A stretch of 19,886 nucleotides of DNA, taken from the NCBI GenBank assembly GCA_018396535.1, contig JAGTQC010000011.1:1-19886 (forward strand). The letters run 5' to 3'. Below the pieces are notes generated by a model. That model saw only the letters and a program-made list of their open reading frames with translations, ran no database searches and was not told the DNA's origin. Origin of the DNA: Candidatus Bathyarchaeota archaeon (GTDB taxonomy: Archaea; Thermoproteota; CALKCG01; B24; DRYS01). Position 1 is the first letter of the stretch; every line of letters starts with the position of its first letter. The position numbers were made by a program, and so were the translations under genes. Of the stretch, positions 15,426 through 19,886 are shown piece by piece.

Positions 15426-17489
15426 CTATATAGGGCATACACCCGATGGGCATCCAGCTTCCTCGCTAGCACCCACGTACAATACTTGCTGCGATTTACT
15501 ACCATACCTATAGACCGTTACACCCTTACACTTCAACTTATATGCTAGCATGAAGACTCTTCTAACATCCTCTAGTGTAGCATCAGAGGGTAGGTTTACG
15601 GTTTTAGCTACAGCATTATCTACATATCTCTGGAATGCTGCTTGTATCTCTACATGCCATCTAGGATCTACTTCTAGAGCTGTTACAAACAATCTTTTAA
15701 CATCTTCAGGTATTCCTTGAACATTACGAAGAGTCCCCTTACGCGCTACCTCGACTACTAGATCATCACTATAAAATCCACGCTCCTTAGCTATCTCTAC
15801 GAATAGCCTATTAACATCTATGAGTCGTGTACCCTCCAGTACCTCTCTAACATATGCTACAGCGAATAGAGGCTCTATACTACTACTAGTACCAGCTACT
15901 ATGCTTATACTACCTGTAGGAGCTATCGATGTAAGGGTAGCATTCCTCATAGCATCATATCTCCCAGCCCATATACTATCCTCGAACGATGGGAAGGAGC
16001 CTCTAATCCTACCAAGCTCTACAGATTTCTCCCTAGCAGTCTCAGATATGAATCTCATAAGCTTCTCTGCGAAGGATACAGCCTCCATAGAATCGTATGG
16101 TATACCTAGCTGTATAAGCATCTCTGCAAACCCCATAACACCCAACCCTATCTTACGATTAAGCTTAGTCATACGCTCTATCTCTGGTAGCGGATACCTA
16201 TTCACATCGATAACGTTATCTAGGAAGTGTACAGCTTCTCTAACAGTATAAGCGAGCCTATCCCAATCCACATCACCACTCCTCCTATCTACGAATCTAG
16301 ATAGGTTTATAGATCCTAGATTACAAGATTCGTAGGGTAGAAGCGGTACCTCACCACATGGATTAGTAGCTTCTATCACTCCAAGCTTAGGTGTAGGATT
16401 ATGCCTATTTATCTCATCTATGAATATCAATCCAGGATCACCAGTCCTCCAAGCCTGATTAACTATTAAGCTGAATACATCATTAGCTGGAAGCTTCTTA
16501 ACGACCAAACCAGTCCTAGGATTTATAAGAGAATACTCACTATTCTCATCCACACACTTCATAAACTCATCGGTAACAGCTACAGATATGTTGAAGTTTC
16601 TTAAAGCCCCCTCCTCACTCTTAGCCATTATAAACTTTATTATATCAGGATGATCAACTCTGAGTATACCCATATTAGCACCCCTACGTTTACCACCCTG
16701 CTTTATAACCTCTGTAGCTACATCGAAAATCCTCATAAAAGATACTGGACCTGAAGCAACACCCCTAGTACTCTTCACTATATCGCCTTCAGGTCTAAGC
16801 CTACTAAACGAGAAGCCTGTACCACCACCAGATTTATGGATTAAAGCCATAGCTTTCAACGCATCGAATATACTCTCTATCGAATCATCTATAGGCAATA
16901 CGAAGCATGCTGAAAGCTGACCTATCTCAGTACCAGCATTCATAAGCGTCGGCGAGTTTGGAAGCCAATCTAAGCTAGCCATCATCCTATAGAAGTTCTT
17001 CTCCACGTTAGATACCTCATCCCATGACGCTCCGTAGAATCTATCAGCTAAAGCTATGGCATGAGCAACTCTAGCGAACATCTGGCTAGGAGTCTCTATT
17101 ATCCTACCATCAAGATCTCTTAGAAGATACCTCCTCTCTAAGAGTCTTACAGCGTTAACTGTAAGCTTAAGGTCATCGTATACGCCTATGATACGTTTTA
17201 AACTCCTTATATCCGCTCTCATCCTACGATAGAGTATATACTCTTTAGCAACCCTAGCATATCCATGCCTTATAAGCGTCTCCTCAACTATATCCTGTAT
17301 ATCCTCTACGCTAGGTATAGAATCCTTAAACTTCTCTTCTACGATAGATACAACGGCTTTAGTAAGCTTAGCTACAGATTCACCATCACTCTCGCCTACA
17401 GCGTTGAAAGCCTTCATTATAGCATTATATATACGGTTAGGATCAAACGCTTCTAGCCTACCATTCCTCTTCCTAACATAGGAAACCAT
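15426..17489 (-). CDS. nrdJ: Class II (adenosylcobalamin-dependent) ribonucleotide reductase with N-terminal ATP-cone
   Basis: VRKRNG ATP-cone, [33 protein letters not shown] and APTGSIS motifs; C-terminal CPSGVC; likely ATG at 17489. No intein visible. Confidence 0.93.
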
Positions 17490-17779
17490 AACTATCCTCA
17501 AAATATTATGACTAGGAACTTCGAGATAAATATGATCGAAATATACTAGGAGAACTTATCAAACAATAAATTCACCATTTCTAAGAAGAGGAATGGGGCT
17601 TACCCACCATACAGCTTAAGCTTCTAGCCTCCATACTAGCCCCTACCATACTGGTGAAGAATGGGTGAAGGAGAAGTTTATAGGATCTGGTATGGTAGAA
17701 GATCCGTTCTATAGCTATTTAAAGCATAGGGCTAAAGTAAGAGATATATGGAAGCTAATATTATGATCATGATATTCGT

Positions 17780-18652
17780 ATGGAGGAGGAGATCTATAGA
17801 GCGGTTTTAATCGCTCAGAAGAATGAGATTACTGAGTATCATATCTATAGGAAGCTAGCTCAATCCATGGGTAATCCTAGTAATAGAGATGTTTTAAAAC
17901 GTATCTCAGGAGAAGAGCTTAAGCATTATGAATTTTGGAGAAGGTATACGTGTAAAGATGTCGAGCCTAGTAGGCTTAAGATCTGGGCGTACTCTATAAT
18001 CTCTAAGATTTCTGGAATAACCTTCGGGATAAAGCTCATGGAGAGGGGGGAGGAGAAGGCTAAAGCTATATACAAGAGGATAGCAAACCATTTTCCCGAA
18101 GCATGTAGCATAATCGAGGATGAAGATATACATGAAAGAGAGCTTATGAATCTAATAGATGAGGAGAGGCTTAGATACATTAGCTCTATAATCCTAGGCT
18201 TAAACGATGCACTTATCGAACTTACAGGTGCTCTCGTCGGATTTGCATTCGCTCTCCAGGAAGCTCGTTTAGTTGCTGTCACAGGTTTGATAACAGGGAT
18301 TGCTGGAGCTCTCTCGATGACTACATCAGAGTATTTATCGACTAAATCTGAAACAGATACTAGAAGTCCTCTTAAAGCAGCTTCATATACGGGTATAACA
18401 TACATTATCACAGTCCTATCCCTAATACTACCATACATTCTCCTATCAGAAATCCATATATGTATATGCATATCGTTAATCAACGCTGTAATACTCATCT
18501 TCATCTTCACCTTCTACATCTCCGTAGCTAAAGATTTACCATTTAAGAGAAGATTCCTAGAAATGACTTTGATAAGTCTAGGAATAGCATGCCTAACCTT
18601 CCTTATAGGCCTCCTTGTAAGGATATTCCTAAATATAGAAGTACTGGATTGA
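17780..18652 (+). CDS. Rubrerythrin/ferritin-like domain fused to VIT1/CCC1 iron transporter (MbfA-like)
   Basis: E..EY, EELKH, ERGE and EDIHE diiron-type ligands; LGLNDAL..., GALSM..SEYLS and about 5 TM segments. Confidence 0.88.
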   Translation: MEEEIYRAVLIAQKNEITEYHIYRKLAQSMGNPSNRDVLKRISGEELKHYEFWRRYTCKDVEPSRLKIWAYSIISKISGITFGIKLMERGEEKAKAIYKRIANHFPEACSIIEDEDIHERELMNLIDEERLRYISSIILGLNDALIELTGALVGFAFALQEARLVAVTGLITGIAGALSMTTSEYLSTKSETDTRSPLKAASYTGITYIITVLSLILPYILLSEIHICICISLINAVILIFIFTFYISVAKDLPFKRRFLEMTLISLGIACLTFLIGLLVRIFLNIEVLD

Positions 18653-18775
18653 GACTGTTTTTAACAATATCTTATAGCATAACGTAGAACGTACATATAA
18701 TATAAATTAATAATGGAATATTATTCATACATACGGTTATAGCGTACTATCCTAGAGTATTCTCTAACCTTCATC

Positions 18776-19000
18776 CTACCTTGTAACAGGTGAAGCAACA
18801 GCAAACCTTCTACTTACACTCTCTATCTTTATGTGAAGATGATCTCCAACCTTACTACCTGGTACGAATATTATAAAGCCTTGTATACGAGCTATACCAT
18901 CACCTCTACTTCCTACAGATTCTATCACCACATCGTATTCTTCGCCTACCTTAACAGGTACTGGTCTATACCCTCCACCGCCTACACGTTTTCTCGCCAT
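18776..19000 (-). CDS. Single TRAM-domain RNA-binding protein (archaeal cold-shock-like RNA chaperone)
   Basis: PVKVGEEYDVVIESVGSRGDGIARIQGFIIFVPG..VGD...FA; GGAGGTG SD before the ATG at 19000. Confidence 0.92.
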   Translation of the reverse strand: MARKRVGGGGYRPVPVKVGEEYDVVIESVGSRGDGIARIQGFIIFVPGSKVGDHLHIKIESVSRRFAVASPVTR

Positions 19001-19024
19001 ACACATACACCTCCTTTCCATACA

Positions 19025-19129
19025 GAGACCCTAGGTAAAGGATTATACCCTGTTATACTACACCTACCAACTCCGTGAGGAGAAGGTAGGCGTAAGTATA
19101 CGGATACAACCCTCCACCTGGTAGGCCTC
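19025..19129 (-). promoter_or_regulatory. Long structured 5' leader hairpin of the TRAM gene
   Basis: Nested helices of 18 bp (5 G-U pairs), 5 bp, 10 bp and 4 bp with a UCAC loop. The G-U pairs form only on the minus strand. GAGAAA-TGTTAAATA BRE/TATA at about 19157-19170. Confidence 0.75.
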
Positions 19130-19407
19130 CTAGGCTTATAATCACAGTTATCTCCTATTTAACATTTCTCTCTAGCGATCATGATGGAGTATATAACATT
19201 GCAGATTAAGAAAAGGGAAAAATATATGTATACAGAAGTTAATATATTCCATACTCTTCTACGGTTTATACAATTACTTTCATTTTTCTGAAGATTTCTC
19301 TCCCAATACATCTGTTACTCTGTGCTAGTATAACTTTACTTAAAGATTGGTTATCGGCAATCATACCAACGATCCTTTACTGATATACCTAACGCTGTCA
19401 AACTCTG

Positions 19408-19614
19408 GTGAAGGGCATCGATAGATATGTTAAACGTATTAAGGTATACGGATCTACCATAAGTAGCAGGATTCCTACAACCTGAACATCTATTATTCCT
19501 AGAATTGGGGGGAAGGAAAATATAGCTAAGGAAATATACGCTAAGACGAAGCAATCTGGTATAATGGCGTTATCAAAAATCTCTCGTAGTAGAGTGGGGA
19601 AACTTAACGAATAA
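19408..19614 (+). pseudogene. Possible degenerate minimal nucleotidyltransferase (MNT) remnant
   Basis: VKGIDRYVKRIKVYGSTISSRIPTT*TSIIPRIGGKENIAKEIYAK resembles the 'VYVFGS..RG....SDIDIL' layout, with a stop at 19483 and no DxD. Confidence 0.3.
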
Positions 19615-19686
19615 ATAGTTAACTAAACTATATAGCTAAAACTATACAAAACAAATAGAGTATATCTGCTTAACCCTATCTCTCTT

Positions 19687-19886
19687 TTATGCTTGTGTTA
19701 TCTTTTCTAATTTTTCTTGTATTGATTTAAATCTTTTCTGGTATTCTGTTCTTTCTGCTACTTTCATACTTCTCCATAGTAGTACTTGTTTTCTCATTAG
19801 GTCTAGGAATTCTCTTCCGAATGTTATCCATGATCCTCTAGGTCCTGTTGTCCTCTCCATTCTTACTATGAAGCTGTGTCTACCTG
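19687..19886 (-). CDS. 3' end of a gene truncated by the window edge, possibly a large FtsX-like permease family protein
   Basis: ...GPRGSWITFGREFLDLMRKQVLLWRSMKVAERTEYQKRF...TQA*; the RKQxLxWR tail is recalled from large archaeal FtsX-like proteins. Confidence 0.55.
   Translation of the reverse strand, partial: GRHSFIVRMERTTGPRGSWITFGREFLDLMRKQVLLWRSMKVAERTEYQKRFKSIQEKLEKITQA

Follow-up and report, generated by a model that had tools for sequence, protein, structure and literature searches.

What does the long leader of a small archaeal RNA-chaperone gene do: does it alternate between two folds that free or cover the ribosome-binding site (RBS), or does it keep a single fold that serves the messenger in another way? 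The question is raised by a TRAM gene on the minus strand of the window, by which we mean the whole stretch of 19,886 nucleotides analysed here, one complete 19.9-kb contig of a 1.41-Mb assembly (93% complete). A reading made from the letters alone, hereafter the sequence-only reading, had proposed a two-state RNA switch in the leader of this gene, working as a thermosensor or through autoregulation by TRAM. In archaea, stand-alone TRAM proteins fill the place that cold-shock proteins have in bacteria.

The TRAM gene, its promoter and its host

The gene and the signals that surround it are the following.

18776..19000, minus strand: single-TRAM protein gene, 74 aa from the ATG at 19000-18998, stop codon included (PF01938 and PDB matches)
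19008..19014, minus strand: Shine-Dalgarno (SD) sequence GGAGGUG, left free by the hairpin fold (complementarity to the 16S 3′ end; folding)
19019..19021, minus strand: upstream ATG in frame with the gene (MERRCMCM-ARKR...), without an SD and 2 nt past the outer hairpin helix P1
19131..19135, minus strand: predicted transcription start, 27-31 nt past the first T of the TATA box and placed from the TATA position only
19155..19170, minus strand: BRE-like stretch and TATA box of the TRAM promoter, read from the sequence, with the block aaaCGTTAAATAG common to four orthologous loci

The sequence-only reading had taken the gene for a TRAM RNA chaperone, and the product is indeed a genuine stand-alone TRAM protein. 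PF01938 spans residues 15-71 of the 74-aa protein (E 1.2e-13), which agrees with the usual definition of such proteins (a single domain of about 60-70 aa and none other), and the nearest solved structures are 1YEZ (MM1357; E 1.5e-19) and 1YVC (MMP0076/TRAM0076; E 4.5e-16). All genomes of the order (16/16) have an orthologous TRAM gene. The host (Bathyarchaeota by NCBI label, likewise the MAGs of close relatives) is treated here as a thermophile or hyperthermophile because its genome encodes reverse gyrase (1271 bits) and the IVYWREL fraction of its proteome is 0.466.

A BRE/TATA had been proposed at about 19157-19170 of the minus strand, and it is present there as the TATA box TTAAATAG (19162-19155) behind a purine-rich BRE-like stretch (19170-19163), conserved in four orthologous loci. 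The conserved region of these loci starts at the BRE/TATA, about -183 from the ATG, with none further upstream, and this onset of conservation supports the promoter assignment. The tRNA-Arg gene in the window carries a similar TAATATAG about 32 nt ahead of its 5′ end. Transcription is predicted to start at 19135-19131, hence a 5′ leader of roughly 132 nt.

The SD GGAGGUG is fully complementary to the 16S 3′ end (GAUCACCUCCU, read from the 16S of a genome of the same genus), and the 19 nt from the SD through the ATG at 19000 (GGAGGUGUAUGUGUAUGGC) are invariant in four orthologues. At the upstream ATG (19021), AUGGAAAGGAGG matches the start AUGGAAAGAAGG of a sister family, and a 3-nt indel in the orthologues preserves the frame of this ATG; the codons between both ATGs differ at each position. 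ATG 19021 is possibly the ancestral start, and the start codon is, as read from these comparisons, ambiguous between AUG 19000 and AUG 19021. The leader also holds an upstream ORF of 17 codons (GUG 19117 to UAG 19064, minus strand) behind an SD look-alike; this ORF is absent from the orthologues.

Structure of the leader hairpin

Most of the predicted leader is taken up by one long hairpin, whose parts are listed below.

19024..19130, minus strand: whole leader hairpin P1-P4, 46 bp, rod-like, with the apical loop UCAC at 19078-19075 (RNAfold and covariation)
19123..19130, minus strand: P1 5′ arm GGAGGCCU, SD-like and near the 5′ end, pairing with 19031-19024
19024..19031, minus strand: P1 3′ arm GGGUCUCU, forming the 8-bp outer helix with GGAGGCCU (RNAfold)
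19102..19119, minus strand: P2 5′ arm AGGUGGAGGGUUGUAUCC, pairing with 19050-19033 (18 bp, 5 G-U)
19033..19050, minus strand: P2 3′ arm GGGUAUAAUCCUUUACCU, holding the invariant GGGUAUAAU and a weak, inferred TATA-like TATAAT at 19047-19042
19079..19101, minus strand: inner 5′ arm (P3/P4), the proposed anti-RBS strand, including the invariant CCUACCUUCUCC (19090-19079)
19052..19074, minus strand: inner 3′ arm, with GGAG of P4, a tandem U-U loop and GGUAGGUGUAGUAU.AC of P3 (RNAfold)

RNAfold reproduced each helix that the sequence-only reading had named, i.e. P2 with its 18 bp (5 G-U), GUAUACU/AGUAU, ACGCCUACC/GGUAGGUGU and CUCC-UCAC-GGAG, and added the outer 8-bp P1, which was absent from that list. 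The predicted folding energy of the 116-nt element is -66.8 kcal/mol (z -8.5), a value that 0/200 shuffles equalled, whereas the antisense strand, in which the roughly 10 G-U pairs of the hairpin weaken the fold, reaches -41.2 kcal/mol (z -3.1). The far stronger fold of the sense strand marks the hairpin as an RNA structure of the TRAM transcript. The hairpin ends 9 nt before the SD, which had been described as free in this fold; the mean unpaired probability of GGAGG, 0.88 at 37 C, bears this out. Inspection of the internal loops revealed no K-turn or bulge-helix-bulge motif.

Conservation and distribution of the hairpin

Four distinct versions of the leader were compared, the only ones present in the collections searched, namely that of the window (identical to the one on metagenome contig L117), those of the congeneric genomes L008 and L009, and that of metagenome contig L118. 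The rod is common to all four genus-level leaders, with folding energies between -56 and -70 kcal/mol. Pairs were counted in a model-fitted alignment of the four sequences, used because MAFFT alone misaligned the hairpin centre; in this alignment, which is fitted to the structure and leans towards it, 92% of pair cells are paired, as compared with 42-49% when the partners are slid by 1-3 columns, and both partners were replaced in six pairs and a single partner in nine. P1 has one pair with both partners replaced (CG/GC). As the sequences number four and the alignment is fitted, this covariation supports the hairpin without being decisive.

Pairwise identity of the leaders (0.60-0.81) is near that of third codon positions in the coding sequence (0.65-0.92), and the fold persists while the primary sequence drifts. 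Three blocks within the hairpin are invariant: UAGGAGGC, which is found in the P1 5′ arm of 4/4 sequences, CCUACCUUCUCC and GGGUAUAAU. They hint at sequence-specific recognition beyond pairing.

When the four sequences were turned into a covariance model, it matched the genus only, with hits in 3/16 genomes of the class and 3/150 sampled genomes of the phylum, and the hairpin is single-copy in the 1.41-Mb assembly according to both BLAST and the covariance model. At the gathering score, cmscan of the window against Rfam returned a tRNA only; at E <= 10, the region 18650-19886 gave chance matches only (<=17 bits), and 20 other TRAM loci gave tRNAs only. The element thus has no Rfam match at either threshold, in line with the sequence-only reading, which had not recognised a described family. 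No regulon was apparent for the motif CCTACCTTCT, whose 11 genomic copies are scattered and lie mostly outside leaders upon inspection. As judged by these searches, the element is undescribed and restricted to the genus; its kind, a structured leader on the mRNA of a chaperone, is itself familiar.

TRAM leaders in relatives and other archaea

The other three families of the order have shorter leader hairpins (about 11-23 bp), followed by a spacer and an SD. Their 5′ arms are purine-rich (UUAAGAAGGU, GGUAGGAAG and GAAUAAGGAG) and their 3′ arms CU-rich (CCUACCUUCUUAA, CUCCUUCUUAUU and CUUCUUAUUUC). In all four families the first hairpin pair lies about 25-33 nt past the first T of the TATA box (by manual count, and with the TATA box of family f4 placeable in two ways), which puts it at the predicted 5′ end or no more than about 5 nt away. 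In the sister family, little variation is seen in the 3′ arm, spacer and SD, and the 5′ arm varies through G-U pairs. The motif CCUACCUUCU recurs in the window element, where it belongs to the 5′ strand of the inner helix.

Structured leaders are also enriched upstream of TRAM genes more widely. Folds with z < -2 were found for 28% of 145 distinct TRAM upstream regions from across the archaea, compared with 6.7% of 150 control upstream regions taken from the genome studied here, and folds with z < -3 for 17% and 1.3%, respectively. The structures are heterogeneous and not homologous between lineages. They tend to have a purine 5′ arm and a pyrimidine 3′ arm (RGAAG..CTTCY in 12 leader clusters vs 5 reversed; 14 vs 9 when scored by arm composition), an asymmetry that is suggestive and not significant. 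The length of the hairpin was considered as a heat adaptation and this was rejected: reverse gyrase is present in family f1 as well as in f3, whose hairpins measure 46 bp and about 20 bp, respectively, and f4 has no reverse gyrase match yet folds at -47 kcal/mol, so that there is no simple relation.

A proposed static stem-loop at the 5′ end

We propose that the region comprises a promoter and a leader with a static 5′-terminal stem-loop, which would serve mRNA stability or insulate the RBS and to which TRAM may bind, and we give this explanation about an even chance of being correct. It is put forward because selection appears to keep the hairpin and no helix covering the RBS, and it is favoured because a hairpin at the predicted 5′ end and a free, strong SD are constant across the order. 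Transcription would start at 19135-19131, and 1-5 free nucleotides would precede the hairpin, the first pair of which is 32 nt past the first T of the TATA box and 1-5 nt from the transcription start as predicted from the TATA position. The RNA would then fold into one 46-bp rod (19130-19024), with the SD (19014-19008) following after 9 nt and then the AUG at 19000. This stem-loop could block 5′-end-dependent decay of the TRAM mRNA, and the rod could hold the long leader off the RBS, resulting in stable, high expression of an abundant chaperone. Binding or unfolding of the leader by TRAM itself is a possible second layer.

We infer the stabilising or insulating function, the stabilising one by analogy. 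Stabilisation of messengers by 5′ stem-loops is known from bacteria, where examples include the 5′ hairpin of ompA and the aprE and ermC leaders of B. subtilis, and the STAB-SD of cryIIIA is an SD-like stabiliser; our literature search found no experimental report of a 5′ stem-loop stabilising an archaeal mRNA. Like the bacterial stabilisers, the TRAM leader has a hairpin a few nucleotides from the predicted 5′ end, set apart from an exposed RBS, and an SD-like sequence near the 5′ end. However, its hairpin is much longer (46 bp), its SD-like sequence is paired and not free, and the nuclease to be withstood would be a beta-CASP enzyme of the aCPSF2 type rather than RNase E or RNase J1. The genome encodes a 419-aa beta-CASP RNase without KH domains that aligns to positions 176-614 of the aCPSF1 model, an architecture that we assign to the aCPSF2 type from its domain content. 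In Sulfolobus, aCPSF2 is a 5′-3′ exoribonuclease (PMC3792030), and protection of the 5′ end by aIF2 affects mRNA stability (PMC3936769).

Three observations run counter to parts of this proposal. A stem of 46 bp far exceeds the requirement of end protection, the invariant blocks hint at recognition of specific sequences, and a helix between the inner 5′ arm and the RBS, treated below, beats chance in this genome (z -4.6).

TRAM as a possible ligand of its own leader

The hairpin could instead be an operator for TRAM, whose binding or unwinding would feed back on transcription elongation, on mRNA decay or on translation and would involve no particular second helix. The protein belongs to the same family as TRAM0076 of M. 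maripaludis (PMC6705878) and TRAM3066 of Methanolobus psychrophilus (PMC5572242). TRAM0076 immunoprecipitates its own mRNA, unfolds 5′UTR hairpins in vitro and in vivo, and has been proposed to regulate itself (PMC6705878), which makes TRAM action on the present leader a serious second possibility. The enrichment of structured TRAM leaders in many lineages of archaea and the invariant blocks inside the helix, which suggest recognition beyond pairing, are both consistent with an operator. However, the binding of RNA by TRAM0076 reportedly shows no obvious sequence specificity (PMC6705878), leader structures lack homology from one lineage to another, and the authors of the Methanolobus study, who predicted the 5′UTRs of TRAM genes at two temperatures, saw no alternative, temperature-dependent structures (PMC5572242). 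The target hairpins studied there have 9-13 bp, and the two papers suggest self-regulation yet define no leader RNA motif (PMC6705878; PMC5572242). By analogy with these systems, TRAM autoregulation through the leader is possible; as the main role of the hairpin we consider an operator unlikely, at perhaps one chance among several.

A possible strand exchange at the base of the hairpin

A smaller rearrangement would involve P1 only. Its 3′ arm, an anti-SD sequence, would have two possible partners: the 5′-terminal SD look-alike UAGGAGGCgUA, which leaves the RBS on, and the true SD AAGGAGGUGUA, paired in a local 9-bp hairpin that turns the RBS off. The exchange would be tipped by capture of the 5′ end by a 30S subunit, by TRAM or by 5′ trimming. 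Among the orthologues, the P1 3′ arm reads aCGUCUCC or aUGCCUCC and could also pair with the true SD, and the P1 5′ arm (AGGAGGCGUAcu) nearly copies the SD region (AGGAGGUGUAug), the two being equal at 9/12 positions in L008, L009 and L118. With P1 blocked, these same three are predicted to form the local anti-SD:SD hairpin. The cost of opening P1 is 5.6-8.5 kcal/mol, and the other TRAM leaders of the order likewise have an SD-like purine arm ahead of a CU-rich arm.

Against such an exchange, the compensatory CG/GC change of the window keeps P1 and breaks the SD pairing (a G-G clash, with 6 bp left, 3 of them G-U), and no opening of P1 is predicted at temperatures up to 85 C. Among archaeal TRAM leaders whose SD is clear (97 in all), anti-SD:SD pairing shows no enrichment relative to dinucleotide shuffles (median z +0.2), and SD look-alikes are weakly enriched (mean z +0.68; 3/37 clusters at p <= 0.05). 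We therefore regard the P1 exchange as a quite unlikely account of the leader.

The same low standing applies to a more general scheme, a chaperone-gauging switch, in which the SD look-alike and the true SD would exchange strands with one or two anti-SD segments, in a process catalysed by TRAM or dependent on temperature, and so set TRAM translation; we hold it to be a speculative idea with little chance of being right. If true, it would work through the inner arm here and through that of P1 in the congeneric species, and would be an independently evolved archaeal counterpart of cspA autoregulation that differs by lineage.

A possible second promoter within the hairpin

The invariant GGGTATAATCC in the 3′ arm may be a second, weak TATA box that gives rise to a short-leader or near-leaderless mRNA from about 19020. 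Part of the hairpin conservation would then reflect promoter constraint at the DNA level, and the long leader would be one isoform. TATAAT (19047-19042) precedes 19020-19017 by 27-30 nt, the block is invariant though its pairing partner varies, and the in-frame ATG 19021 resembles the sister-family start. However, the block has no A-rich BRE and is a poorer TATA box than the upstream one, and the 5′ arm retains pairing via G-U and compensatory changes, which a constraint on DNA only would not require. Two promoters or starts are accordingly improbable, about on a par with the P1 exchange.

The proposed alternative helix

The two-state switch of the sequence-only reading rests on one further segment.

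18999..19019, minus strand: RBS segment able to pair with 19101-19079 (duplex -24.3 to -25.8 kcal/mol, this genome only)

In the proposed toggle, either the long hairpin forms and the RBS is free, or the inner 5′ arm (19101-19079) covers the SD and AUG (19019-18999), and temperature or TRAM sets the balance. The complementarity claimed for the inner arm over the SD and the AU of the AUG is real and unusual in this genome: the helix has 21 bp and -25.8 kcal/mol (z -4.6), and 0/1000 dinucleotide shuffles were as good. A role for TRAM in setting the balance would agree with the binding of TRAM0076 to its own transcript and the autoregulation proposed for M. maripaludis (PMC6705878).

The energies, however, argue against a toggle. 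At 37, 70 and 85 C, a fold with the alternative helix lies above the hairpin by 17.1, 10.8 and 7.6 kcal/mol, respectively; in the orthologues the difference is +12.7 to +28 kcal/mol. The hairpin would also be kinetically favoured, since its arms are adjacent and transcribed before the RBS, as the order of segments implies. A pseudoknot with P1 and P2 intact appears to be precluded on geometric grounds because the 9-nt linker is too short, so that the entire rod would need to open.

Comparison of orthologues, which had been suggested as a check by covariation, upheld the hairpin, which is conserved with compensatory changes, and went against the alternative helix, which is not conserved. In the three orthologues the RBS is invariant yet the extended pairing is lost, and complementarity between the core CCUACCUUCUCC and GGAGG alone persists; their best leader:RBS duplexes (-12.8, -17.9 and -15.2 kcal/mol) are no better than those of shuffles (z +0.8, -0.8 and -0.3). 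The two helices are thus neither of comparable stability nor both conserved or covarying, as those of a two-state switch would be, and that part of the earlier proposal is not supported.

The thermosensor fares no better. In the thermodynamic model, the unpaired probability of GGAGG is flat, at 0.88, 0.91, 0.91 and 0.84 for 37, 55, 70 and 85 C (0.64-0.93 in the orthologues), which differs from the pairing of SD or AUG and their release on a temperature shift that mark an SD-masking thermometer. The leader resembles the ROSE and fourU thermometers in being a cis-acting hairpin with SD-like and anti-SD-like strands; unlike in those thermometers, its true SD is unpaired at every modelled temperature. 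Taken together, we judge the toggle to be very unlikely, slightly more so than the P1 exchange.

Least credible of all is a reading of the hairpin as an independent small RNA, or as a mobile or palindromic repeat, instead of a leader. Its length, its near-perfect pairing and the promoter in front of it would suit this, but a repeat or mobile palindromic element was rejected on finding one genomic copy (BLAST and covariance model), there is no terminator-like site or T-tract between the hairpin and the TRAM gene, the position before this gene is constant, and searches for Rfam families, tRNA and tmRNA gave no match at the hairpin (ARAGORN reported only a tRNA-Arg far from the leader).

Comparison with cspA and implications

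The alternative folds over the RBS and the leader autoregulation that had been envisaged were modelled on the E. coli cspA 5′UTR, a thermosensing leader with a cold box (the cspA thermoregulator of Rfam), and there is a likeness, in that both are structured leaders of >100 nt before the gene of a small OB-fold RNA chaperone. Unlike cspA, the present leader belongs to an archaeal thermophile and has no match in Rfam, and it is a single rod with an exposed SD, for which the alternative is neither energetically competitive nor conserved. On present evidence, it is not a new kind of switch. What it adds is a delimited, covarying and undescribed leader structure, with a clear promoter and an exposed SD, from thermophiles that bear reverse gyrase. 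This leader would be a useful test case for the stabilisation of archaeal mRNAs by 5′ stem-loops and for a possible action of TRAM on its own message.

Predicted SD masking in Candidatus Hecatella orcuttiae

L115:1330-1503, upstream of the TRAM gene of Candidatus Hecatella orcuttiae JdFR-11: predicted SD-masking leader, evaluated by duplex energy against shuffles

Among 97 archaeal TRAM leaders with a clear SD, the JdFR-11 leader was the sole strong outlier in SD pairing. GCUUUUUACCUCGCU pairs with AGCGAGGUGAAAAGC in a perfect 15-bp helix of -24.9 kcal/mol (z -6.6 relative to shuffles), and this predicted helix masks the SD of the TRAM mRNA. Based on this modelling, the leader is a better candidate for a switch or thermometer than the hairpin of the window.

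Leaders of the sister family

About 95 nt upstream of the TRAM ATG in L010-L016 and L020 (TRAM loci of family f3): nearly invariant leader 3' half

This 3' half, CCUACCUUCUUAA(A/C)CC(A/U)AUAAUUUAAAGGGAGGUUG, is almost invariant over two genera, whereas the hairpin's 5' arm differs between sequences, a pattern in the sequences which suggests that the CU-rich strand and spacer are recognised sequence-specifically.

The TRAM locus of the window and other loci of its genome

19064-19117, minus strand: 17-codon upstream ORF (GUG start, VEGCIRILTPTFSSRSW, UAG stop)
19019-19021, minus strand: in-frame upstream ATG, adding MERRCMCM ahead of MARKR
15426-18652: TRAM neighbour genes, encoding a ribonucleotide reductase (minus) and a ferritin-like/rubrerythrin-VIT1 fusion (plus)
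G000:C9:25884-29540, in the window's own genome assembly: reverse gyrase (1271 bits)
G000:C7:93322-94581, same assembly: KH-less, aCPSF2-like beta-CASP RNase (419 aa)

The upstream ORF lies within the leader hairpin, its GUG 8 nt past the 5' SD look-alike, and was not conserved in the three orthologous leaders compared. The 3' arm of the hairpin contains a 10/12 match to a bacterial sigma-70 promoter (19042-19070, minus; TTGGTA-17-TATAAT), whose TATAAT is the block that is invariant in this arm; in an archaeal host the match is presumably without meaning.

The stretch of about 500 nt that precedes the TRAM promoter (19171-19686) holds only short ORFs (≤67 aa), with no Rfam match and no conservation found in congeneric genomes, and the contig ends (19886) within a 65-aa open frame lacking a Pfam match. 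The neighbouring reductase (691 aa) is class II-type with an ATP-cone, and the fusion protein (290 aa) is encoded convergently with TRAM. The genome assembly contains no 16S rRNA gene.

At the upstream ATG, AUGGAAAGGAGG resembles the sister-family TRAM start AUGGAAAGAAGG and looks homologous to it. This likeness suggests that the present SD (AGGAGG) may be derived from one-time Arg-Arg codons, the TRAM start having moved 21 nt downstream.
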